The translations under genes were made by a program, and so were the position numbers. From a virus (lineage: Duplodnaviria > Caudoviricetes), in the IMG/VR virus record IMGVR_UViG_3300022561_000008, positions 3,469 to 67,468 of that record: DNA of 64,000 nt; one strand, written 5' to 3'. The notes beneath the pieces were generated by a model. That model saw only the letters and a program-made list of their open reading frames with translations, was not told the DNA's origin and did no database searches. The stretch's first letter is position 1; each line of letters opens with the position of its first letter. Below are positions 1,017-64,000 of the stretch, piece by piece.

Positions 1017-1520
1017 TTATGAAATATTTGGGACGCAATTTAATGGGAAATTTGGTCTAGCAAACTCTTTGTGATATTTTATACAGGCAACATCAAAGGC
1101 TCGTGCTGCATCTTCTTCAATAATAAAGCGCCCTAGGTGAGTACACTTCCCTTCTGGCTTTATGGCAACCTCCCATATTTTATCTCTACTATTCCAAGAT
1201 ACTCCCCTGTAAATAGAAGAACAATTTTTTTGAGGCCTCTGATTCATACGATTTTCTTGATTGGTACAATGTCTTAGGTTGTATCTCTGATTATTTAATC
1301 CATCCCCATCGCGATGATCTACAATTGGACTTAATATGTTTTCGCCCATGATAAGTCTGTGCATTCTATATTTCTTCTGTCTGCCATTAATCCTAACAGA
1401 CCTTACGGCGTAGTATGTATTTCCATCCTTATGAGCACTCCACTTCCACTGATTTAGCCATTCAAAATCTTCATCATCAACTTTAGCAAATTTTCCTTGT
1501 GTTAATTCTATTGACCTCAT
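1017..1520 (-). CDS. HNH homing endonuclease with C-terminal AP2 domain
   Basis: IELTQGKFAKVDDEDF N-terminus, VDHRDGDGLNNQRYNL HNH motif, SIYRGV..W...HLGRF..EEDAARAFD AP2 motif. Confidence 0.9.
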   Translation of the reverse strand: MRSIELTQGKFAKVDDEDFEWLNQWKWSAHKDGNTYYAVRSVRINGRQKKYRMHRLIMGENILSPIVDHRDGDGLNNQRYNLRHCTNQENRMNQRPQKNCSSIYRGVSWNSRDKIWEVAIKPEGKCTHLGRFIIEEDAARAFDVACIKYHKEFARPNFPLNCVPNIS

Positions 1521-1619
1521 TATTAAATGTTTTAAAACAACAAACCCCCAAACTCAGCTTGCAGACTAAGAATGAAGGTTTGTTAAAAAATATTATCAAT
1601 TATGCTGCAAGACATGCGA

Positions 1620-1627
1620 CAAATATA
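1620..1627 (-). promoter_or_regulatory. Bacteroidota sigma-A -7 box (TATATTTG)
   Basis: Matches TAnnTTTG about 100 nt upstream of the HNH start. Confidence 0.6.
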
Positions 1628-1805
1628 CAAAATAAAATTGAGATTACCAAATATTATCTGCACGGGTTATACGTGGCAGTTATAACCGTCCGAGGTTATC
1701 ATTATACCCGCTAATGTAATTTTGCGTACATTATTATGTTCATAGTAATATAAATGAGATACTTAACTATTTTTAATCCTCGGAGCGGGTATAGCTCGGA
1801 TATAA

Positions 1806-2348: not shown

Positions 2349-3840
2349 TTATAATCACATCTCCAACACCCCAACTACTTAATCCTAAGTTATATCCATG
2401 CTCTAAATCTTGGCATCCCACCACTAAGCTCCCATCTTGGCGCGATGGAGTATGACTATGAGCTGTCACTGTTTTCGATGAAAGATTCTTAAACTGAACC
2501 GAGCTGCCGCGACTACCATTGGCTCCACGATCTCCATGTAAATTTAATTCAATTCCACATACTACAATACTGTCGTCTACCTTAGTTGCCACAATGCCTA
2601 ATTCACGCACCAAATACGGGAATACACCATCAGGCTCACGTAAAGCAATCGGGAGCAATTCGGCGTACTTCAGAGCATTTGGAATATCTTTTTTCCAATC
2701 CATGTTAGCTATATAGCGATCAATCATATTGTCATGGTTTGACGGAATAATCCTAATGTCATCGCACAGGAGATTCAGTTCCGACAGATACTCCAACGTG
2801 TCCTCAATCTCGTTGGCCAGACTATTTCTACCAGACTCAAATCTCTTAACTTTCAGGATCGGATTCTTTTCTTCGTGGGGATTTACTGACTCCGCGTCCA
2901 TGACATCGTGTAGGATAAGCATCTTTGGGTTTATGGCGATTATGCGAGACCTAATCCTGATCCGTGCTTCCTGAGAAAGTTTCGCTGTATGGAGGTCTCC
3001 TAATATAAGGGCTTCTACTTGCGGAGCTTTCACTACTTCTCCGGAGATAACCTGCTTATCCATATCTATAAAACTACCGTCGTCACATGCTGTAACGTAA
3101 TGCATGTCCCCATCTGTAACTATTACGAAACCATATGTATGGTGGAACTCTCCCTTCTTTCCCGTCTTGCTATCGGTGTAGTTCGGTAGAGTACAAGCTC
3201 CGGTCGTCATCATAATCTTTGGCGCATGCCCTTTTGGGACTGGCATAAACTGCATGTGCACCCTTGGATGTCCAAATATACACGACTCAGATGCGGATAG
3301 CCCGTTTAGTCCTGATAATGGCGTAACCGCTGTGGGCTGAATCTTTACGTCAGACATTAACTGAATACCATCAAAAAGATCATGTCTGTTAGCGTCCAAA
3401 TAGGGCAAGACTTCTGCGCACCAGACATCATTGGGTGCATCAGAAAAAACCGAGTTTGGGTTCTTGTAGCGGCTAGCAATCACATGCACCTCTGCACCTT
3501 TGAATCTGGCGTAGGCTAACAGATTATCCCAAAATGGTTTATGTATGGGCGTTGAGTTTAATGCTGTTGTGATTATGTAGGTTTTGGATGGCGTGAGTTT
3601 CTTGTGTGAGGCTTTCTCGTATTCGTTATTTTTGCATAGGACATTCATGTATAGCTGGTAGAGATCCATATGAACTCCGGCGACAGGATTTCCGGCAGAC
3701 CCAAGCATTTTACGAACCCTGTATCTTGCGCCTTCTGCATCAATAGATGGGTCTTGTCTTACCATTTCCTTGGCAATAGCTCTCTTGTTTGTAATGCCTT
3801 TCGCAATACATTCCCTAATTACTTGTTCAGTGAAAATCAT
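2317..3840 (-). CDS. Large phage protein with C-terminal metallophosphoesterase fold
   Basis: GDLH, LHD, SNHD, HGD and AHSH motifs in the C-terminal half; HTH-like N-terminus. Confidence 0.7.
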   Translation of the reverse strand: MIFTEQVIRECIAKGITNKRAIAKEMVRQDPSIDAEGARYRVRKMLGSAGNPVAGVHMDLYQLYMNVLCKNNEYEKASHKKLTPSKTYIITTALNSTPIHKPFWDNLLAYARFKGAEVHVIASRYKNPNSVFSDAPNDVWCAEVLPYLDANRHDLFDGIQLMSDVKIQPTAVTPLSGLNGLSASESCIFGHPRVHMQFMPVPKGHAPKIMMTTGACTLPNYTDSKTGKKGEFHHTYGFVIVTDGDMHYVTACDDGSFIDMDKQVISGEVVKAPQVEALILGDLHTAKLSQEARIRIRSRIIAINPKMLILHDVMDAESVNPHEEKNPILKVKRFESGRNSLANEIEDTLEYLSELNLLCDDIRIIPSNHDNMIDRYIANMDWKKDIPNALKYAELLPIALREPDGVFPYLVRELGIVATKVDDSIVVCGIELNLHGDRGANGSRGSSVQFKNLSSKTVTAHSHTPSRQDGSLVVGCQDLEHGYNLGLSSWGVGDVIINGDGKCQHIF

Positions 3841-3876
3841 TTATGATCGGTATTAGTTAGTACAAAGATAATATAT

Positions 3877-4386
3877 TTATTGGATAATGCAAATATTATT
3901 AGGGAAATTTAATCTGTTGAATTCTGGGTTACGCTTTATAGCTGCTACGTCGTATGCACGCGCTGCATCTTCCTTGCCATTAAAGTATCCAAGGTACTTC
4001 TGCTTTCCATTTATTCCTATGTACGCCTCCCATTTTTGCATCAATTTATTCCAACGAACTCCCCTATATCCCGATGTGCTGTTCTTATTTAAACCCCTAT
4101 TCATCATATTTTCTTGGTGGGTACAGGGCTTTAAATTATATTTCTGATTATTTAATCCATCTCCATCCTTGTGATCTATACTTGATTTTGAAGGATTATA
4201 TCCCATGATAAATTGATGCATGTACTGAGTCTTCTGTCTACCATTAGATGTAATATTTCTTACAGCGTAATAAACGCATCCATTTTTGCTTTTCCGAGCA
4301 TGCCACTTGCCTGCCTTTATTACCCTATCGTAATCCTCATCGTCTACTCGTGCAAATAATCCCTGACTTAGCGGTATTAATCTCAT
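3877..4386 (-). CDS. HNH homing endonuclease with AP2 domain (paralog of 1017..1520)
   Basis: IDHKDGDGLNNQKYNL, SGYRGV..W.AYI..YLGYF..EDAARAYD; start moved to MRLIPLSQG at 4386. Confidence 0.9.
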   Translation of the reverse strand: MRLIPLSQGLFARVDDEDYDRVIKAGKWHARKSKNGCVYYAVRNITSNGRQKTQYMHQFIMGYNPSKSSIDHKDGDGLNNQKYNLKPCTHQENMMNRGLNKNSTSGYRGVRWNKLMQKWEAYIGINGKQKYLGYFNGKEDAARAYDVAAIKRNPEFNRLNFPNNICIIQ

Positions 4387-4525
4387 TGTTTTAATATAAA
4401 AAGAAAACCTCAAAAGAAAGGATACGAGCCAATCTAATGAGGTTGTTCAGTTTTTAAACTGAAATATTTTATTGCGATCTCGTATTTCGCGGTGTAAATA
4501 TACGAAATACAATTGACAATACCAA

Positions 4526-4675
4526 ATAAAATTCGTCTATTTCCGAATCGCCAGTAATGATTGATCATGGTGGGTAAAGAATGCTCTAACACTCCGCAAA
4601 CCCATCCTGACTATTCGATCTGATCAACCTTCGCTCCCGTATACCGACGGGGGTCTTATGATTGCGGGTGTTTTG
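4526..4675 (-). ncRNA. Candidate structured RNA 3' of the tRNA, ending in a terminator-like hairpin
   Basis: Several complementary segments with crossing topology (see findings); no ORF. Confidence 0.35.
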
Positions 4676-4677
4676 TG

Positions 4678-4750
4678 AGCCGGATGTAGGATTTGAACCC
4701 ACGACCCGCTGAGTACAAATCAGCAGCTCTACCAACTGAGCTAATCCGGC
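4678..4750 (-). tRNA. trnT: tRNA-Thr (anticodon UGU)
   Basis: GCCGGAT/ATCCGGC acceptor stem, AGCTCAGTTGGTAGAGC D-arm, GCTGA-TTTGTAC-TCAGC anticodon arm, GGTTCAAATCC T-loop; CCA not encoded. Confidence 0.95.
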
Positions 4751-4889
4751 ATAGGTTTTTAAGTTGTTTATATTGAGGTGTAACCAAGAACTGTATTTAT
4801 CAAACTAAAAACCTCGCTTGTGTCTCAAGTGCTTGAGTCAACCCATTTATAATGCGCAGGTTTGATTTGGCGCGTAATTAATATTATGA

Positions 4890-5261
4890 TCAGAACGGAA
4901 GATCATCGCCATCTTTCTGATCTCCACCACTTTGCGTATCCATTGGTGGTAAGTCGTCCGCGGGTTTTGGTTTCGCCCCAGAAGTTTTAGTAATATTCAC
5001 CCTCCATGCCGTTACGTTCGAGAAATACTTGCCCTGATATTCGCGTGACTCCACATTGAATCCAACCTCAACCTCGTCATCGACCCGCATATCGGCGATT
5101 AGTTCCGGTTTGTTGAATACGGTGAAGGCTACTTGTTTTGGGTAAGAACCTTCCTGTTCCTCAATTACGAAGTCTTGTTTTTCCCATGCCTTACCTGCCG
5201 CGCTCGTTCCAGATACTTCTGGAAGAATTGCTACTACTTTTCCACTAATTTTTAAATCCAT
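4890..5261 (-). CDS. DUF3127 family protein (SSB-like OB fold)
   Basis: GKAWEKQDFVIE..YPKQVAF..VGFNVESREYQGKYF motif; acidic DDLPF tail. Confidence 0.85.
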   Translation of the reverse strand: MDLKISGKVVAILPEVSGTSAAGKAWEKQDFVIEEQEGSYPKQVAFTVFNKPELIADMRVDDEVEVGFNVESREYQGKYFSNVTAWRVNITKTSGAKPKPADDLPPMDTQSGGDQKDGDDLPF

Positions 5262-5662
5262 TATTCTGCTGTTTTATTTGTTTCTACTCCTACTATATCT
5301 CCTGCTGTTACTCCTGCCGTTTCCTTCATCTCCCGTAACGCCTTCTCCTCTTCGATAATAGCTAAGTCATCTTCTGGTGTGATCTCTTTGTTTAGATCGG
5401 CAAAGTATGAGTTGTGCCATTTGATCCAAGCCTCCACGTACATTGGATTCTGAATTGCTAAAATACTGAATGTTTGAGTTCCGGCAAATGCGACTTCAAA
5501 ATACTTGCGCCATTCGTCATCTTTGCAGTCCTCGAAAAATTTCTCGATGTTTTCTGGCGCTGCTCCCATTCTGAAATTCCATGATTTATTCTCGTGGGAT
5601 ACTTTTAAGTAACCATTTTCTTTCTCGCAGATGTAACTGCCGAGTTTAATGTTTTTTTTCAT
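5261..5662 (-). CDS. Hypothetical protein
   Basis: 133-aa ORF in a coupled operon. Confidence 0.7.
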   Translation of the reverse strand: MKKNIKLGSYICEKENGYLKVSHENKSWNFRMGAAPENIEKFFEDCKDDEWRKYFEVAFAGTQTFSILAIQNPMYVEAWIKWHNSYFADLNKEITPEDDLAIIEEEKALREMKETAGVTAGDIVGVETNKTAE

Positions 5663-6057
5663 TTGTTGTTTTTAAATCTGTAAAATTGAAATAAGGACAT
5701 CTTTTTGATTGAAGCAATTTCTGCACTGTGCGATACTTTGAGTTTTAAAAGAATCCAGTCGCATTCCTTTTTTACCTTAGATAAGCCTTCGTTATGCTCA
5801 TCACGCACATCACCAAGCTCTTTTCGCGCCTTCTTCAACTCCTCTGCGATGGCATTAACAGCCTCGTCGCTTGACTGAATAAAAGAATCTGTAATTTTGT
5901 ATCTTGAAGGAACGTAGTCAAATCCATTTATATATGCGTCATTCCCTTCTATGACCTTAACGCTAAACGTAATAGTTTTTACTCCTAACGCTAATTCCTG
6001 ACTACGGCGCTTAAGTTCGTTATATTCCTCTAAATCAATCGTTGCTGTTGGTTTCAT
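5659..6057 (-). CDS. Hypothetical protein
   Basis: 132-aa ORF with ATGA overlap. Confidence 0.7.
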   Translation of the reverse strand: MKPTATIDLEEYNELKRRSQELALGVKTITFSVKVIEGNDAYINGFDYVPSRYKITDSFIQSSDEAVNAIAEELKKARKELGDVRDEHNEGLSKVKKECDWILLKLKVSHSAEIASIKKMSLFQFYRFKNNK

Positions 6058-6061
6058 CTTT

Positions 6062-6286
6062 TTACGTGTAATATTTTACGTCCCTTCCATCCCTATTTGC
6101 AAAGCTCATCTTCACTATTCCTACGCCTTTCAGCTTCTCGATTGTTTCTTTCGTGCCGACCCGATCCTTTCCATTTATTGACACCACGAATATATCTGTA
6201 TCGTTAAGTTCCTGATCTAATTTCAACCCCACGTCAGGTTCTGGTTTTGGTTTTGGTGGGGGCTTTTTGGGTCTTGTTGGAGCCAT
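6062..6286 (-). CDS. Hypothetical protein
   Basis: 74-aa ORF in operon. Confidence 0.6.
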   Translation of the reverse strand: MAPTRPKKPPPKPKPEPDVGLKLDQELNDTDIFVVSINGKDRVGTKETIEKLKGVGIVKMSFANRDGRDVKYYT

Positions 6287-6353
6287 TATTTTCTGTCTTT
6301 ATGAAGAAGCCATAACTCGTAGAATTCTACTTCTAATTTCGATAAGTCTGCCA

Positions 6354-6643
6354 TTATTCTGAATCCTCCCCCTTCGTTGAAAATTGAAATACCAACTGAT
6401 TGGCAATATGATTAAATTCAAAATGATTCTTGTTCTCCCCGGTAAATCCATTGAAAATCATTGTAGGCATTAGATTTGCCAAGGCATGAAAAAATTGAGT
6501 AAGATTATCGCCTTCCTGTAATTCTTCGCCATAAATTTTGTATTCGTTTTCGGTATCTGGTCTAACATGTCAGCAACTACCGCAGATAGCATAGACGCAT
6601 AATGCAGATACTTTTCGTCCTTCTTTTCTGTTTTCTTTTTCAT
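6354..6643 (-). pseudogene. Frameshifted small phage gene (single-base deletion near 6559)
   Basis: ATG at 6643; 290 nt = 97 codons minus 1 nt; adding one C joins MKKK..ADMLD to PDTENEYKIYGEELQEGDNLTQFFHALAN..SE*; stop overlaps next ATG (TAATG). Confidence 0.6.
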
Positions 6644-6653
6644 TTTGTTGATT

Positions 6654-6896
6654 TTATGATTCGAAAGTTATGGTTACTGAATCGAGGATTTGCCAATATT
6701 CTACATTGAAACAACTAAACCAATCTTCACAATAATAACCAATTTCCGAAGATCTGTTATCGTTCCCTTTAGCCAATACCACACCTACCTTATTGTCGGA
6801 AAACAAAATAATCGCACTGTCTTTTTTAGACTTGGCAATAACCGGAAATTTTTGTTTATCTTCTTTCGTTTCCTCTTCTACAATTTTACTTTTCAT
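6654..6896 (-). CDS. Hypothetical protein
   Basis: 80-aa ORF preceded by TATCTTTG near 6922. Confidence 0.7.
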   Translation of the reverse strand: MKSKIVEEETKEDKQKFPVIAKSKKDSAIILFSDNKVGVVLAKGNDNRSSEIGYYCEDWFSCFNVEYWQILDSVTITFES

Positions 6897-6955
6897 TTTC
6901 TTCTCTTATTAGTTTATAAATACAAAGATAATACATTTATTCATACTTCCAACTA

Positions 6956-10446: not shown

Positions 10447-10746
10447 TCATTTCGCCTCCTCCCTAACCATCTTCAGCAATATCCCATAGTTCACTAAGTC
10501 AATTATTGAATCGTCAATAGATTCATTGTTCGGCGTTTTGCTTCCATGTAAATTCCCGATCCTGACAGCTTTGGTCGCTATGAAAACCAGAAGAACTTGT
10601 TCAGGTGTGATCCCAACCATAGAAGCGACTATTTTGAAGTTGCTGAGGCGATCCTCATTTGCATAGTCATCTCCCTTGCTATCCTGTATTTTACTCAACT
10701 CGTCAAATATGAGAGATAATTGCGTTTGCTGTTCTGTTTTTGTCAT
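10447..10746 (-). CDS. Nucleotide-modification-associated domain 1 (Nmad1/DUF1599-like)
   Basis: KGDDYA..SNF..K..R..NESIDDSIIDLVNY pattern. Confidence 0.7.
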   Translation of the reverse strand: MTKTEQQTQLSLIFDELSKIQDSKGDDYANEDRLSNFKIVASMVGITPEQVLLVFIATKAVRIGNLHGSKTPNNESIDDSIIDLVNYGILLKMVREEAK

Positions 10747-12791: not shown

Positions 12792-13106
12792 CTACATCTT
12801 TTGCCACCTCACACCAGAAGCAACATGCCAAATATATTTCATCTGTGGTTTTTGCATTAGCCATCCTAAATCACCGCACCATACATCAATTTCCTTCCCT
12901 TCGCTAACACATTTCCACCCGCCAAAATGGTTCGGCTTGGCATCCATAGGTATTAACATACATGCTTTTTGCCATTCTCCGTATGGCACAATTACGTCAT
13001 AATCTCTTGATTCTGTATTATCTGGGTCTGCTCCACTTCCAACTATCCATGCGTCGTGTGCGTGAGTTAATGCTAATACTAATTTTGGTAATTTACTTGA
13101 CATCAC
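12792..13106 (-). CDS. Nucleotidyltransferase-like protein
   Basis: WIVGSG..SRDYDVIV..EIDVW resembles Pol-beta-like GS/DxD/D motif. Confidence 0.45.
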   Translation of the reverse strand: MMSSKLPKLVLALTHAHDAWIVGSGADPDNTESRDYDVIVPYGEWQKACMLIPMDAKPNHFGGWKCVSEGKEIDVWCGDLGWLMQKPQMKYIWHVASGVRWQKM

Positions 13107-13555
13107 TTTATTTTTCTCATTATTTTAGTTATTTTTTGCATCTCCGTTTTATCCCCATCTTTCAGGATTGCTTCGGCGCGGGTGATTCTGTCCCTCAGCT
13201 TCCCTGACGCCACAGTCTCTCCCGTGTATTCCAGATCCACCACCATCTTCTTGTGGCGATCCAGTTCCGACTGTAGCTCTCCAATTACTTTCGCTATAGA
13301 CATCCCTTCCTGTGTCTCGCCTCTTTTGGTGGTTAGGTTGCTTCTCCGGCAATCGAGTTTATCTCCGTTCTTGCAAAAGATTCGCACCCTCGGATCTTTC
13401 TTGCACAGGACATATTGTGGCAGAGTCCACCGCTTCCCATCAATCAGCGCATTCGGAAATTTATCCATCCCCCACTTATGCGTCGAGGCTCGTAAAAAGT
13501 CGCGGTCGTCGATGATGGCGCATGAGCCGTTGTTGAGTTCGAGGAGTTGGCTCAT
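13103..13555 (-). CDS. Degenerate HNH-endonuclease-derived protein with helical C-terminus
   Basis: LELNNGSCAIIDDRDF N-terminus; IFCKNGDKLDCRRSNL lacks the catalytic His of DH. Confidence 0.6.
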   Translation of the reverse strand: MSQLLELNNGSCAIIDDRDFLRASTHKWGMDKFPNALIDGKRWTLPQYVLCKKDPRVRIFCKNGDKLDCRRSNLTTKRGETQEGMSIAKVIGELQSELDRHKKMVVDLEYTGETVASGKLRDRITRAEAILKDGDKTEMQKITKIMRKIK

Positions 13556-14043
13556 GGCTTTCTGTAGAATATATACGTCTGACCATCAACCTTACGCCTC
13601 TTATATGCGCCCATCTTATCTAAGGCGTAAGCAAATTTAACCACCGACAATGGTGTTGACTTGGAATAATTTTTACAATAGTGGCAATAACCAAAATAAA
13701 GACCTTTAGAAACTTGGTCTACCGGCTTACTAAATTCCTCAGATTCAGACACTCTCAACCCAATCACCCCTAAATACTCACCAATATCTCCATATTTCGG
13801 AGCGTTTTCGACCTCTACTTCCACGATCTCTTTGACTTTCTTTTCCTTTTCTGGAACTCTGTACAAAATATAATCTGGCAGTTTAGATAAAGTCAGTAAC
13901 CGAGCAGCCATTTTATCAAAATCTTTTTCTCCGTACGGAGCATAGGTTCCAATCTTGTATCTTGCATTTTCCGCCTTCATCCCGTCTATTCCGGCTTGTA
14001 CCGATAGAACCTGTGCCAATTTTGTTGTGTTAAAAAACTTCAT
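13552..14043 (-). CDS. Hypothetical protein
   Basis: 163-aa ORF with its own promoter and structured leader. Confidence 0.7.
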   Translation of the reverse strand: MKFFNTTKLAQVLSVQAGIDGMKAENARYKIGTYAPYGEKDFDKMAARLLTLSKLPDYILYRVPEKEKKVKEIVEVEVENAPKYGDIGEYLGVIGLRVSESEEFSKPVDQVSKGLYFGYCHYCKNYSKSTPLSVVKFAYALDKMGAYKRRKVDGQTYIFYRKP

Positions 14044-14165
14044 TGTAAAATGTTTTAAATAACAAAGCCTCCCAAAGTTCTCCGGTAGTAGGCGGATACG
14101 CTTCAGAAGGCTTTAATTCAAATTTTCCTCTGGCTACTACTCCAGTTGTTGATTATTCAACGGTA

Positions 14166-14173
14166 CAAATATA
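14166..14173 (-). promoter_or_regulatory. Bacteroidota -7 box (TATATTTG)
   Basis: TAnnTTTG upstream of the structured leader of 13552..14043. Confidence 0.6.
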
Positions 14174-14201
14174 ATAAACTTTTCGGAATATCCTACTATT
14201 C

Positions 14202-14894
14202 CTACAAAAATTTATCTCCGTAAATTATATCCATACTCTTGCAAATATCTTCAATATTATCAGGAACCCCATCGGGATAAAATAGATCCGTAAAAATAAT
14301 CCAATTCTGCCTTTTATTTCTATACTTAAAAGGTCTGGACGCAACCCAAACTTGCATAGCCATCCGTATCCTTGCACTTGAAATTACAACATCCCTGTCC
14401 AAATATTCGCGAGGCACAAATTTTATTTCCTCATGCGCATCCAAATCCTTCTCCAGCTTCGGAAAATTAGTAACGGCACTCTCTCCCCTAAATTTTACGG
14501 CCATCCTGTCGTATTCCTTCGCAGCCCCCATCTCCGACTCCAGATACTTCGTGTATCGCCTTCCTTCGTGCTTGATATTCGCCGTCCACTGTCCAGTTGG
14601 CTTAAAATAACACACCCCCCTATATTGGCTCAAACGAGGCTCTTTTTTAAACGATACCTCCTTTTCGGTGGATACATCCACTTGCCTCACGATCCCAGCC
14701 GCAGCGTCACGCTCATCCATCTCTCTGATCGTATCCGTAACGCTTTTCTTTGGGCGGTTGGCTTCCGCATCCCTCTTGGCAATATCCTCGGCTCTTTTTC
14801 TTGCCATCATCTCATTAATAATCTCTGTGTCGCCTTTTATTGGCTCGTCATCAAAATCTACTTCCATTTTCTTAATTTTTATATGTACTCGCAA
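14202..14894 (-). CDS. AP2-domain DNA-binding protein
   Basis: SQYRGVC..WTANI..YL.SEMGAAKEYDRMAVKFRGE.A.TNF. Confidence 0.8.
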   Translation of the reverse strand: MRVHIKIKKMEVDFDDEPIKGDTEIINEMMARKRAEDIAKRDAEANRPKKSVTDTIREMDERDAAAGIVRQVDVSTEKEVSFKKEPRLSQYRGVCYFKPTGQWTANIKHEGRRYTKYLESEMGAAKEYDRMAVKFRGESAVTNFPKLEKDLDAHEEIKFVPREYLDRDVVISSARIRMAMQVWVASRPFKYRNKRQNWIIFTDLFYPDGVPDNIEDICKSMDIIYGDKFL

Positions 14895-15750
14895 AGGTAA
14901 CGTATTTTTTGATATATCCTAATATTTTGGCAAAAAACTTCAATTTTACCTATTTTCAACCGTAAAAATCTCTCGTTTTGGGTACATATTGGCTTTAAAA
15001 ATATTCGCGATGGGTAGATTTTTGGCGGTGTGCAGGTAGTGAATTGCTGCTTTTTGGTGGTTTTTAGGTTGTTTTGGTGGTTTAATTTATTGATTTACAT
15101 ATCGATGCTGTCGCTGTATTTAACATAGGAACCCTACACGCCTGAAACTCATTGATTATTAATACTTTTGTGATGATGTAGCTGATGTAGGCAGAATCGC
15201 CAACAGTTTTTATATGTAGGTACGGTACATATGCATTACATAGTACATAGGTACGTATCATATATATATATCTAATATATATCTTACAGTAACATCAGTT
15301 ACATTATTTAATACTAAAGCATTGATAATCAAATACGGTTAATGTAATGTAGTTGCATATTGTCAATACTTCGCAGCTTCATCAGCTACATTCACATACG
15401 AGAGAGGCATAATTCACAAATCACGAACACCAGAATCTATGTGGGTATAGTTTATTAAGGCAGAATTATTACTGCACACGATTTTGTGATTTAGTGTTAC
15501 TAATGGGAATCAGATAATTAAAAAATAAAAATTTTAAAAAATAAAATGAAAAATTTCTTATTAAACGGAAGGCGCGCTCTGCTAAAATTTTATAGGGGGG
15601 CGTACCCTCCAGCCAGTTCTCGTCCAGTACTGGCGTTAATTGCTTCGTGCATTAGTTGTTAGTAGCATATAATCACATTATATCTATAGATATAATATAA
15701 GTATGTATGTATTAGATAGTTAAGTGTGTGCAGGTGGGTAAATGCGTATT

Positions 15751-20696: not shown

Positions 20697-21127
<431 letters not shown>

Positions 21128-63631: not shown

Positions 63632-64000
63632 TTACGCCTTTGGCTTTCCTAAGAACTTATCCACCAACTCGACACCTTTCTTCTGAGCCGCCTCTACCGT
63701 AGCTTTATCGCCTAATGCTGGAATGATTGGAACTGCGCCATCTTTCGAGTATGAGGATTGCATCCTATTATACTCTTTGATTGCCAATTGAGATGCCTGA
63801 TCTTCTGTCATGCCCTCGTCGATATTAATCAGTCGCATTGCATCATTCAACATCTCTTTGTTGGTCGCTCCACTTTCTCCGGCTTTCTTCTTTGCATTAG
63901 AGATAAGCTCCTGTTTCGTGGTGGCTTTGCGCTGTTCTGCATCTTTCGCCTTTAAATCAGAAACTTCCTGCAATAGAGTTTTCGCCCATGCTGGGGTTTC
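63632..64000 (-). CDS. Capsid scaffolding protein, C-terminal part (5' partial)
   Basis: Frame open to the window edge; ETPAWAKTLL motif, helical, upstream of head genes. Confidence 0.65.
   Translation of the reverse strand, partial: ETPAWAKTLLQEVSDLKAKDAEQRKATTKQELISNAKKKAGESGATNKEMLNDAMRLINIDEGMTEDQASQLAIKEYNRMQSSYSKDGAVPIIPALGDKATVEAAQKKGVELVDKFLGKPKA

Follow-up and report, generated by a model that had tools for sequence, protein, structure and literature searches.

A portable promoter and leader module with complementary hairpin loops, present in three copies in a glacier phage

The window analysed here, a 64,000-nucleotide stretch of a glacier phage of the Caudoviricetes (positions 3,469 to 67,468 of IMG/VR record IMGVR_UViG_3300022561_000008), contains three copies of one portable promoter and folded leader of about 100 bases, each upstream of a minus-strand gene, at 1.5, 4.4, and 14 kb (Table 1). 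As the original prediction held, two of the three genes encode HNH-AP2 proteins, of 167–169 aa: in the product of 3877–4386 AP2 and HNH_3 both pass the Pfam cut-off, while in that of 1017–1520 both remain below it and PHROG phrog_99 (E 3e-35) lends support. The product of 13552–14043 has no Pfam or PHROG family match; it weakly resembles the C-terminal winged-helix region of D5-type primases, and its AlphaFold model, with a pLDDT of 50, is unusable. The end of this gene overlaps the start of the next one (13103–13555), and the 14-kb copy is the head of a multi-gene unit.

Table 1. Features of the three leaders and the genes behind them (window positions)
Feature	Position	Strand	Basis
1.5-kb leader: −7 promoter element	1620..1627	minus	sequence and motif scan; predicted
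1.5-kb leader: hairpin A, weak 3–4-bp stem, loop holds 5' 7-mer 1611–1605	1602..1615	minus	sequence; sister-copy fold
1.5-kb leader: hairpin B, 12-bp lower and 5-bp upper stem, apical loop holds 1564–1558	1539..1584	minus	−23.0 kcal/mol
1.5-kb leader: U-rich tract	1544–1534	minus	sequence
HNH-AP2 homing-endonuclease-type gene	1017..1520	minus	Pfam HNH_3 and AP2, PHROG phrog_99
4.4-kb leader: −7 promoter element TATATTTA	4495..4502	minus	sequence and motif scan; predicted
4.4-kb leader: hairpin A, 4-bp stem and 9-nt loop holding 4485–4479	4474..4490	minus	minimum-energy fold
4.4-kb leader: middle hairpin in linker, 7-bp stem	4446..4463	minus	fold
4.4-kb leader: hairpin B, 7-nt apical loop 4428–4422	4406..4444	minus	folds, −13.9 to −14.8 kcal/mol
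4.4-kb leader: U-rich tract	4407–4398	minus	sequence
HNH-AP2 gene	3877..4386	minus	Pfam AP2 1e-09, HNH_3 7e-06; PHROG phrog_99 5e-40
14-kb leader: −7 promoter element, Bacteroidota-type TAnnTTTG	14166..14173	minus	sequence and motif scan; predicted promoter
14-kb leader: extra 5'-terminal hairpin, 5-bp stem and 4-nt loop	14148..14161	minus	minimum-energy fold
14-kb leader: hairpin A, 4-bp stem and 8-nt loop holding 5' kissing 7-mer 14140–14134	14130..14145	minus	minimum-energy and centroid folds
14-kb leader: hairpin B, terminator-like, apical loop holds 3' kissing 7-mer 14091–14085	14064..14114	minus	folds
14-kb leader: U-rich tract, 8 U in 10, at/after hairpin B base	14057..14066	minus	sequence
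14-kb leader: A/U-rich translation start region (AAAACA... ATG), start codon 14043–14041	14041..14056	minus	sequence
Gene behind 14-kb leader, 163 aa	13552..14043	minus	Pfam/PHROG searches

In each leader a TAnnTTT(G/A) element precedes a 7-nt segment whose complement is found in the loop at the tip of a long hairpin, here called hairpin B, and the predicted 7-nt pairs proved exact in all three. The 5' segment had been taken to be free; it lies instead in the 8–9-nt loop of a small 5' hairpin, hairpin A, at the predicted transcript start, and the architecture is therefore that of a loop-loop “kissing” complex, in which two Watson-Crick-complementary loops of 7–9 nt would provide 7 contiguous pairs. 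The label of H-type pseudoknot thus keeps its crossing pairing but loses its single-stranded 5' partner, which sits in a hairpin loop in most copies and may be free in leaders L002 and L040. Hairpins A and B are both part of the minimum-energy fold of the 4.4-kb and 14-kb copies. Hairpin A of the 1.5-kb copy is weaker; it is present in the minimum-energy structure of a near-identical copy in a sister phage, where a single substitution adjoining it disrupts the fold that competes with A in the 1.5-kb leader. Whole leaders fold better than shuffles (z −3.8 to −4.3).

Hairpin B ends 16–19 nt before the ATG in all three leaders and has a G+C core followed by 8–9 U in 10 nt; a G+C-containing stem leading directly into a U-rich tract is the anatomy of an intrinsic terminator, although a simple terminator scan did not flag the B hairpins because their stems are interrupted. 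In hairpin B of the 14-kb copy a 14-bp lower stem, 3 of whose pairs are G-U, is separated by an internal loop from a 4-bp upper stem that carries an 8-nt apical loop, and the hairpin folds at −23.0 kcal/mol in the sense strand versus −14.0 in the antisense. The layout had been called identical in the three leaders; the 14-kb leader has an extra 5' hairpin that begins 4 nt past the −7 element and is found only in this copy, and the 4.4-kb leader, where hairpin A itself begins 4 nt past the −7 element, has a middle hairpin of a kind also seen in leaders L020, L061, and L077. Nor can the leaders be described as unrelated, with primary sequences that differ completely. Promoter, stem base, and U-rich/AAAACA tail are similar, the AAAACA start region of the 14-kb leader being common to the 1.5-kb copy and the sister ortholog of the 14-kb leader, and we therefore regard the three as paralogous, diverged copies of one module.

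Chance is excluded as the source of the loop complementarity. A scan of both strands of the 67-kb genome returned 246 loosely defined terminator-like hairpins, 5 of which have an apical-loop complement of at least 7 nt within 100 nt upstream, and 3 of these 5 are the three leaders; comparison with shuffled upstream regions gave p values of 0.006, 0.007, and 0.03. Among 810 shuffled leaders, a single one had a complement of at least 7 nt between hairpin loops of its minimum-energy fold. We also assembled 24 leaders with a terminator-like hairpin (the three of the window, the sister-phage ortholog, and those of IMG/VR HNH-AP2 genes), and a complement of at least 7 nt occurs within the same leader in 10 of them, compared with 2.0% when loops are matched to other leaders (binomial P 1.5e-11). 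These tests, conditioned on the presence of a terminator-like hairpin, replace scans that were discarded: an early descriptor of a 7-mer inverted pair plus any 2–3-bp stem was too permissive (78 plus-strand hits, and about 139 on both strands in shuffles), as was a crossing-helix scan that matched 53 of 82 regions, and a hairpin-pair scan could not tell real sequence from shuffled. In 10 of 11 leaders folding is better in the sense strand than in the antisense, each fold having 0–8 G-U pairs, and these pairs make the predicted structure strand-specific.

Covariation comes from the sister phage, which was found by querying with a 3-sequence alignment of the 163-aa protein, a single-sequence query against IMG/VR having returned no match. 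The sister ortholog of the 14-kb leader keeps the promoter and the tail, with no difference in the U tract, and folds a hairpin equivalent to A whose loop sequence is different. Its loop pair is GUCGAGA/UCUCGAC in place of GUAGUAG/CUACUAC, both pairs in 8-nt loops, so that 4 of the 7 positions of the 5' 7-mer are changed and each change is compensated. Read from the aligned sequences, this is direct covariation for the loop pairing, and with another matched loop pair in the ortholog the original prediction of an RNA-level structure that is real, recurs, and is maintained by compensatory change is borne out. The extra 5' hairpin is missing from the ortholog, where a 14-nt gap stands in the alignment.

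The module also travels, as had been proposed. Window positions 1523–1658 are 94.9% identical to the sister phage, compared with about 73% in the flanks, with a U-G to U-A change in the stem of the 1.5-kb hairpin B, and the gene behind this leader is a different nuclease, a GIY-YIG-like + HTH gene replacing HNH-AP2. The promoter-leader thus lies at indel and gene-swap junctions, with an indel in front and a different ORF behind. An obligatory link to toxic nucleases does not survive: the gene behind the 14-kb copy, like the one behind its ortholog, is small and not a nuclease, a copy in another phage precedes an unknown ORF of 189 aa, and the module is on this genomic evidence not nuclease-specific.

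Other matched loop pairs occur before HNH-AP2 genes of unrelated phages, two of these other-phage copies having TATAAT promoters and Shine-Dalgarno sites. In 8 of the 9 copies with a credible loop match hairpin B stands 13–19 nt from the ATG (28 nt in L077), and hairpin A begins 2–4 nt past the −7 element or 6–7 nt past TATAAT. A tail-pattern scan of IMG/VR gave 66 matches, the only real ones being the two copies of the sister phage, and the same scan of a metagenome collection gave at least 116, none real among the matches listed; as a negative control, none of 22 chance hairpins from these listed metagenome matches had a complement of at least 7 nt. No such leader is present at the HNH-AP2 homologs of Bacillus 268TH002, Bacillus Staley, Vibrio 184E37-3b, Tunturi_1, Escherichia kvi, or Microcystis MaeS; in five of these six cultured phages the homologs are tightly packed, and Tunturi_1 has no kissing fold. 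The 13–15-kb region has no blastn match among cultured phages. With Rfam 15 no family reached its gathering threshold in the three leaders (at most 21.7 bits in permissive scans, against thresholds of 50–100), and in the whole window only a tRNA-Thr passes; there is no Rfam match to HEARO or IscB omega RNA in the window, and the HNH_3 + AP2 proteins are not large IscB-type ones. A full-text literature search found no description of a kissing-loop terminator leader, and the leader RNA type is so far undescribed.

The original prediction had offered translational repression or attenuation as functions. Occlusion of the ribosome site was rejected because of the distance of hairpin B from the ATG, and translational repression of this kind is unlikely, the start region lying outside the hairpin in all three leaders, with neither ribosome site nor start codon inside it. 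Attenuation is plausible from the terminator-like anatomy. Leader-peptide attenuation was considered and rejected, a short upstream ORF being present only in the 1.5-kb copy and its near-identical sister copy. Mutually exclusive antiterminator pairing was absent from minimum-energy and centroid folds and was not found by eye, so this is probably not a classical switching attenuator. The reading that we prefer, tentatively and with considerable doubt, is a promoter-proximal attenuator in the form of an intrinsic terminator, with the kiss setting its efficiency; the leader probably doses the gene behind it.

A host-type promoter would then produce a transcript whose first bases fold into the small hairpin A, followed by an A/U-rich linker of 15–30 nt, the long interrupted hairpin B with its G+C core and U-rich tract of about 10 nt, and an A/U-rich ribosome-loading stretch, with the ATG 16–19 nt on. 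Loop A and the apical loop of B would join through their 7 Watson-Crick pairs into an intramolecular kissing complex, with a private 7-mer in each copy. A set fraction of polymerases would halt at B and release an RNA of about 80–110 nt with hairpins at both ends, and the remainder would enter the gene. Since only part of the polymerases would read through, a strong promoter would give a low, context-independent dose, and transcription arriving from upstream would be damped at B too. The kiss would set the termination strength of B; it would have to form once loop B exits the polymerase, ahead of synthesis of B's 3' arm, and would therefore either fix the terminator-competent fold or hinder closure of the lower stem.

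Copies from Shine-Dalgarno hosts also have the U tract, which would be superfluous for translation there, and this supports the terminator reading. On the other hand, B has interrupted stems and loops of 7–8 nt, uncommon features in efficient terminators, the 14-kb multi-gene unit would pay a high price for an efficient stop at its head, and the U-rich tail could instead serve ribosome loading in a host without Shine-Dalgarno sites. Plain dosing, moreover, leaves the strict conservation of the kiss unexplained, since a fixed terminator strength could evolve more simply.

The closest functional parallels to this attenuator are in T-even phages, where the T4 HNH gene mobE is limited by an intrinsic terminator of about 30–50% termination (PMC2790892), mobE and segF both have intrinsic terminators (PMC2988022), and ribosome-site-sequestering hairpins lie at I-TevI/II/III, segB, and Aeh1 mobE, all read as keeping nuclease expression low (PMC2790892, PMC2988022). 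The shared features are RNA hairpins and a partly efficient intrinsic terminator near the start of free-standing HNH or GIY-YIG genes. The T-even elements are, however, single hairpins, whereas here a second hairpin is predicted to pair loop-to-loop; the mobE terminator lies inside the coding region, and mobE lacks its own promoter, whereas hairpin B follows a predicted promoter that belongs to the module; and the ribosome site is part of the I-TevI-type hairpins, whereas B ends 16–19 nt before the ATG. Gene seg43(25) of Aeromonas phage 25 has a plain “unusual” hairpin with no kissing partner and no U tract.

T4-type phages also have portable promoter and stem-loop cassettes (PeSL, promoter-early stem-loop) that terminate and mediate gene swapping (PMC2839356). 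Like these cassettes (PMC2839356, PMC4122927), the module would be an approximately 100-bp unit of strong host-type promoter, terminating stem-loop, and accessory-gene start region, and positions 1523–1658 are, like PeSLs, better conserved than their surroundings and placed at gene-swap points. The PeSL stem-loop, however, overlaps or adjoins the −35/−10 boxes or lies just before the transcription start site (PMC2839356), and so acts on upstream transcripts, whereas both hairpins here are downstream of the −7 element, in the predicted transcribed leader. PeSLs contain a single stem-loop and lack complementarity between loops.

Kissing loops themselves are familiar from the antisense control of plasmids, in ColE1 RNA I/RNA II, pT181, and pIP501, with countertranscript-driven attenuation in pT181 and pIP501, where the kiss decides formation of a leader terminator. 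In both cases two hairpins have loops of about 7 nt that are fully complementary, and private loop sequences give specificity, but the plasmid kiss joins two molecules from opposite strands and here both loops are on one transcript; no antisense promoter was identified at the leaders. If hairpin B were a default-on terminator and the kiss, or a factor reading the kissing complex, decided read-through, the result would be timed expression, which we consider unlikely. In one version the kiss is itself the antiterminator, closing a ring before B's 3' arm is made: with the 3' end held by polymerase, a lower stem longer than one helical turn could not close at its base. A regulated gate would account for the retention by covariation of a kiss that neither hairpin needs for folding, and for hairpin A being predicted as the first RNA to emerge at both promoter types; the lower stems of B are 12–17 bp in several copies, linkers without a middle hairpin are 14–17 nt against a stacked length of about 80–90 Å (estimated from folds), and the multi-gene unit at 14 kb needs substantial read-through. 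The topological argument is reasoning only, kissing complexes can bend, and transcripts reading through from upstream bear the same hairpins. Promoter-proximal terminator units opened by antitermination are exemplified by lambda PR'-6S RNA-tR' with Q and by the put RNA of HK022, which acts on polymerase, and put, made up of two hairpins, follows closely on its promoter. The module resembles these in its predicted strong promoter, in a putative terminator within about 100–200 nt, and in a short RNA that would be made unless polymerase is modified, but no Q-like factor, other candidate factor, or qut/put features were found here, the known terminator loops do not pair with an upstream hairpin, and a sequence-specific reader is unlikely with loops that differ in every copy. 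Less probable still is that the kiss forms a protein-free, addressable gate on the intrinsic terminator, in which hairpin A may capture the emerging terminator loop so that, the ring being closed, the polymerase-held 3' arm cannot thread, and passage may thereby be decided. The private 7-nt address may keep the modules of one genome independent, and free leader RNA could act back on the module it came from, so that selfish nucleases and early genes would be expressed in a self-limited, copy-number-compensated way.

It is similarly unlikely, in our estimate, that there is no termination at all and that the module instead stabilises the mRNA and insulates its translation. A hairpin placed right at the 5' start of the transcript would block 5'-end-dependent decay, as is established for the 5'-terminal stem-loop of E. 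coli ompA, the kiss would make the leader a self-contained domain, and the hairpin base would keep the A/U-rich start region unstructured, whichever gene lies behind. Hairpin A at the predicted start in all copies, the narrow spacing of hairpin B from the ATG in 8 of 9 copies, one leader type serving unrelated ORFs, and a host type without Shine-Dalgarno sites, in which U/A-rich leaders favour ribosome loading, are all consistent with this; yet it leaves unexplained the G+C stem and U tract in Shine-Dalgarno hosts and the need for loop pairing rather than short stable loops, and most other promoters of this phage manage with leaders of 20–25 nt. Were the terminated leader itself the product, a stable small RNA with its own job, it could inhibit the nuclease encoded behind it or serve as its decoy, or could target sister transcripts in trans by means of the private 7-nt address, which we judge very unlikely. 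The order of promoter, structured RNA, intrinsic terminator, and nuclease gene is that of type III toxin-antitoxin systems such as ToxIN, hairpins cap both RNA ends, and a different 7-mer per copy in one genome is expected if cross-talk must be avoided. But in type III systems the terminator sets the RNA-to-nuclease ratio and the antitoxin consists of tandem repeats processed by an RNA nuclease, whereas the three leaders contain no repeats, HNH-AP2 enzymes are DNA nucleases without a known RNA partner, the module also precedes non-nuclease genes, and the intramolecular kiss should beat any trans pairing. The least probable account is that the feature acts in DNA, as protein-binding inverted repeats, a recombination joint, or a single-stranded DNA structure, or has arisen by chance; the latter is excluded by the genome hairpin scan and the 24-leader test. 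The promoter-leader differs much less than its flanks between the sister phages and sits where indels and gene swaps occur, which would fit, as would the likeness to PeSL recombination cassettes (PMC2839356), but three 7-mers in one genome would require three proteins, the halves are about 45 nt apart, and the G-U pairs make the fold strand-specific. A role as recombination joint is, besides, compatible with an RNA function.

If the preferred attenuator reading is correct, the module would be a widespread, so far uncatalogued RNA control element of phages that explains how toxic, selfish nuclease and accessory genes are held at a tolerable dose wherever they are inserted; a protein-free gate, if true, would be a new regulatory principle and a ready-made orthogonal part set. 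Two points added by the window are that the module is not tied to nucleases and that one leader stands before different endonuclease families in the two sister phages. Annotators would gain a means of recognising promoter-leader cassettes and gene-swap junctions in the genomes of uncultured phages, and expression in Bacteroidota and other hosts could be tuned with these compact parts of about 100 nt, which their private 7-nt loop pairs make naturally orthogonal.

As to the predicted promoters themselves, the TAnnTTTG of the 14-kb leader and its flank are also found in the sister phage in the leader alignment. Sigma-70-like matches lie at 4525–4497 in the 4.4-kb leader and, as TTGGTA-17-TATATT, at 1650–1622 in the 1.5-kb leader.

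Glacier metagenomes contain the 67,468-bp virus contig, of which the window is most, and at three minus-strand sites it carries leaders with the same parts in the same order: a TAnnTTT(G/A) element, which we take to be a Bacteroidota-type -7 box, a small hairpin starting 4 nt past it (hairpin A), an A/U-rich linker, a long interrupted hairpin (hairpin B), a U-rich tract, an A/U-rich stretch of the AAAACA type, and the ATG. The original prediction paired a 7-nt segment of each leader with the apical loop of its long hairpin, and all three pairs are exact at the minus-strand positions tabulated here, but the partner segment is not a free strand. In the 4.4-kb and 14-kb copies, folding places both 7-mers inside hairpin loops of 7-9 nt; the 1.5-kb copy has a weaker 5' hairpin, and its near-identical sister copy does fold that way. 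Because the 7-mers sit in hairpin loops, the leaders are better described as intramolecular kissing-loop complexes, a structural claim that we consider very likely to be right. Folded singly, the leaders are more stable than their shuffles, with z scores from -3.8 to -4.3. An additional hairpin stands at the 5' end of the 14-kb copy and another in the middle of the 4.4-kb copy. Nor are the three leaders unrelated, as had been proposed, since promoter, long-stem base, and tail can be aligned among all of them, and the 1.5-kb and 14-kb copies have stem-base and tail sequence in common. The apical loop of hairpin B in the 14-kb copy finds a second complementary 7-mer upstream of the promoter; this one lacks a counterpart in the sister phage and is probably due to chance.

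Coordinates of the leader modules and neighboring features (window positions unless stated)
Feature	Position	Strand
HNH-AP2 gene behind 1.5-kb leader	1017-1520	-
1.5-kb 7-mers (loop A/loop B)	1611-1605/1564-1558	-
1.5-kb promoter-leader compared with sister phage	1523-1658	-
HNH-AP2 gene behind 4.4-kb leader	3877-4386	-
4.4-kb 7-mers (loop A/loop B)	4485-4479/4428-4422	-
163-aa gene behind 14-kb leader	13552-14043	-
14-kb 7-mers (loop A/loop B)	14140-14134/14091-14085	-
Second complement to 14-kb loop B	14189-14195	-
Third HNH-type gene (phrog_99)	14202-14894	-
Strain joint, metallophosphatase indel	1654 to 2320 (indel 1655-2319)	
Strain joint	1053 to 1531	
Strain joint, 4.4-kb HNH indel	3840 to 6919 (indel 3841-6918)	
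Strain joint, HNH N-terminus	beside 10478	
Hairpin between convergent genes	935-1013	both
tRNA-Thr (UGU)	4677-4750	-
Non-coding stretch in L087	340-1229 of L087 (window about 14900-15750)	
Leader RNA read as protein in P0003	1272-1369 of L087	
Promoter-like element	20864	
Trinucleotide microsatellite	20881-20958	
End repeat of contig	contig 1-134 and 67335-67468 (latter = window 63867-64000)	

Searching both strands of the complete genome, we collected terminator-like hairpins, defined as single hairpins at -10 kcal/mol or lower with a U-rich tail, and looked for those whose apical loop has a perfect complement of at least 7 nt within 100 nt upstream. Such a complement was found for 5 of 246 hairpins, and 3 of these 5 are the window leaders, each upstream of a gene with the ATG 17-19 nt downstream. 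Shuffling of the upstream regions gave p values of 0.006-0.03 per leader, and loop-to-loop complements of at least 7 nt arose in 1 of 810 shuffled leaders.

The decisive evidence comes from two comparisons with G001, a 43-kb IMG/VR contig of a sister phage, which shows synteny with the window at nucleotide identities of 66-86%, in most places 72-85%. Its ortholog of the 14-kb leader precedes the gene orthologous to that of the 163-aa protein (amino-acid identity 43%) and keeps promoter and 25-nt tail nearly unchanged; the central part is unalignable, yet the leader adopts the same fold. The 8-nt loops carry GUCGAGA/UCUCGAC in G001 and GUAGUAG/CUACUAC in the window, so that 4 of the 7 positions of the 5' 7-mer have changed and each change is compensated, which is the compensatory loop pairing looked for in a homologous leader. 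The third HNH-type gene, whose leader is ordinary at about 24 nt, is absent from G001 and was therefore inserted immediately upstream of the 14-kb promoter-leader; since the G001 leader has no HNH gene upstream, the leader belongs to the gene behind it. The database protein P0003, of the 163-aa type, has 33 extra N-terminal residues, a conceptual translation of the leader RNA, and its true start aligns with the ATG of the window gene. Upstream of this gene in L087, the sister-phage region, lies a long non-coding stretch with repeated AAAAGTACACATGA-like words, a candidate origin or iteron region.

Among 81 upstream regions (78 from IMG/VR HNH-AP2 homologs and the 3 window leaders), a terminator-like hairpin lies within about 50 nt of the ATG in 24, and 9 of these 24 have a loop complement of at least 7 nt. 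One of the 9, L039, has an A/T-rich sequence and does not outdo its own shuffles (p 0.45), while L002 and L061 are further true cases overlooked by automatic hairpin choice. When loops were matched to other leaders in a set of 24, with duplicate sequences removed and the sister-phage ortholog added, complements appeared in 2.0%, versus 10 of 24 loops with their own leader (binomial P 1.5e-11); the matched loop pair is private to each phage. Two copies, L040 and L023 (in the latter, one 7-nt loop is the exact complement of the other), carry TATAAT promoters together with Shine-Dalgarno sites, which means that more than one host group has the element.

HNH_3 and AP2 domains were indeed found in two of the three window genes, as predicted, but the tie to nucleases is not a strict one: the module also precedes the 163-aa gene and its G001 ortholog, and in another phage a second copy precedes a 189-aa ORF of unknown kind, so it is common before homing-endonuclease genes but unspecific to them. 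The 163-aa product matches no Pfam or PHROG family and has only three homologs; language-model and structure look-up pointed weakly to the winged-helix region at the C terminus of D5-type primases, and its own structure model was too poor for use.

The 1.5-kb promoter-leader, a stretch that starts some 30 nt before the -7 box and reaches the ATG, is shared with G001 at 94.9% identity, against about 73% for the flanking genes, and the ORF behind it there encodes 194 aa with HTH_3 and a sub-threshold GIY-YIG match, not HNH-AP2. Its transcribed part differs by 3 structure-neutral substitutions: a U-G to U-A change in a stem, one in an internal loop, and one just before hairpin A. Co-occurring glacier strain contigs have joints at the same places, one removing the metallophosphatase gene and another, with 17 other letters at the joint, removing the 4.4-kb HNH gene and leader, the tRNA-Thr gene, and several small genes; a further joint places an HNH N-terminus resembling that of the 1.5-kb copy beside position 10478. 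Leader identity above that of the flanks, the swapped ORF, and the strain joints together make the promoter-leader a discrete cassette in a gene-turnover region. The phage-encoded tRNA-Thr lies directly upstream of the 4.4-kb promoter-leader, and read depth there is much higher in all four runs, an excess that presumably comes from tRNA genes of the host or elsewhere. Where the 1.5-kb HNH gene ends, between convergent genes, there is a very stable hairpin (-34.5 kcal/mol plus, -25.5 minus) that looks like a bidirectional terminator.

The sense fold is more stable than the antisense fold in 10 of 11 leaders, with up to 8 G-U pairs, which supports a sense-strand RNA structure. A protein operator was considered and rejected: this one genome has 7-mers of three different sequences, with the paired halves about 45 nt apart. 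The long hairpin is built like an intrinsic terminator (G+C core, upstream A-rich arm, 8-9 U in 10 nt at the base), and its U tract is kept in Shine-Dalgarno hosts too, where ribosome loading does not need it. The 5' hairpin coincides with the predicted transcript start, at a distance of 2-4 nt from the -7 box or of 6-7 nt from TATAAT, so polymerase stopping at the long hairpin would leave a terminated RNA of roughly 80-110 nt with both ends in hairpins. Our best reading of the sequence, though a tentative one to which we give a little less than an even chance, is that the module works as a promoter-proximal attenuator, setting the dose of the downstream gene and dampening upstream transcription, with terminator efficiency governed by the kiss. 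The kiss would form ahead of synthesis of the terminator 3' arm, closing a ring, and the 14-17-nt linkers would barely span a stacked complex that we estimate from the folds at about 80-90 Å. If the ring is closed by linkers this tight, then the kiss may act as a gate and impede, not promote, closing of the stem at its base.

No antiterminator pairing was seen in the minimum-energy or centroid folds, and the leaders show neither a conserved leader peptide nor an occluded start region. A rival reading is an antitermination unit gated by a factor or by the kiss. The module could also act as a 5' stabilizer and translation insulator without termination. The terminated RNA, with its hairpin ends, might itself be a free small RNA.

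A promoter-proximal attenuator can be compared with known terminators that limit phage HNH genes (reviewed in PMC2988022), such as that of T4 mobE, with 30-50% termination (PMC2790892), and with PeSLs, portable promoter and stem-loop cassettes at gene-swap points (PMC2839356, PMC4122927). Unlike the window module, neither has two hairpins with complementary loops, and the PeSL stem-loop lies in or around the promoter whereas the module's hairpins lie in the transcribed leader. No Rfam family matches the leaders, and a full-text literature search found no description of the element, which we rate as belonging with structured leaders built on an intrinsic terminator.

Elsewhere in the genome, a TATATTTA promoter-like element is followed immediately by a trinucleotide microsatellite with 26 AAT/ATA units. 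Over about 130 nt the two contig ends repeat each other in direct orientation, nearly identical but for small indels, a sign that the genome may be circularly permuted or terminally redundant.
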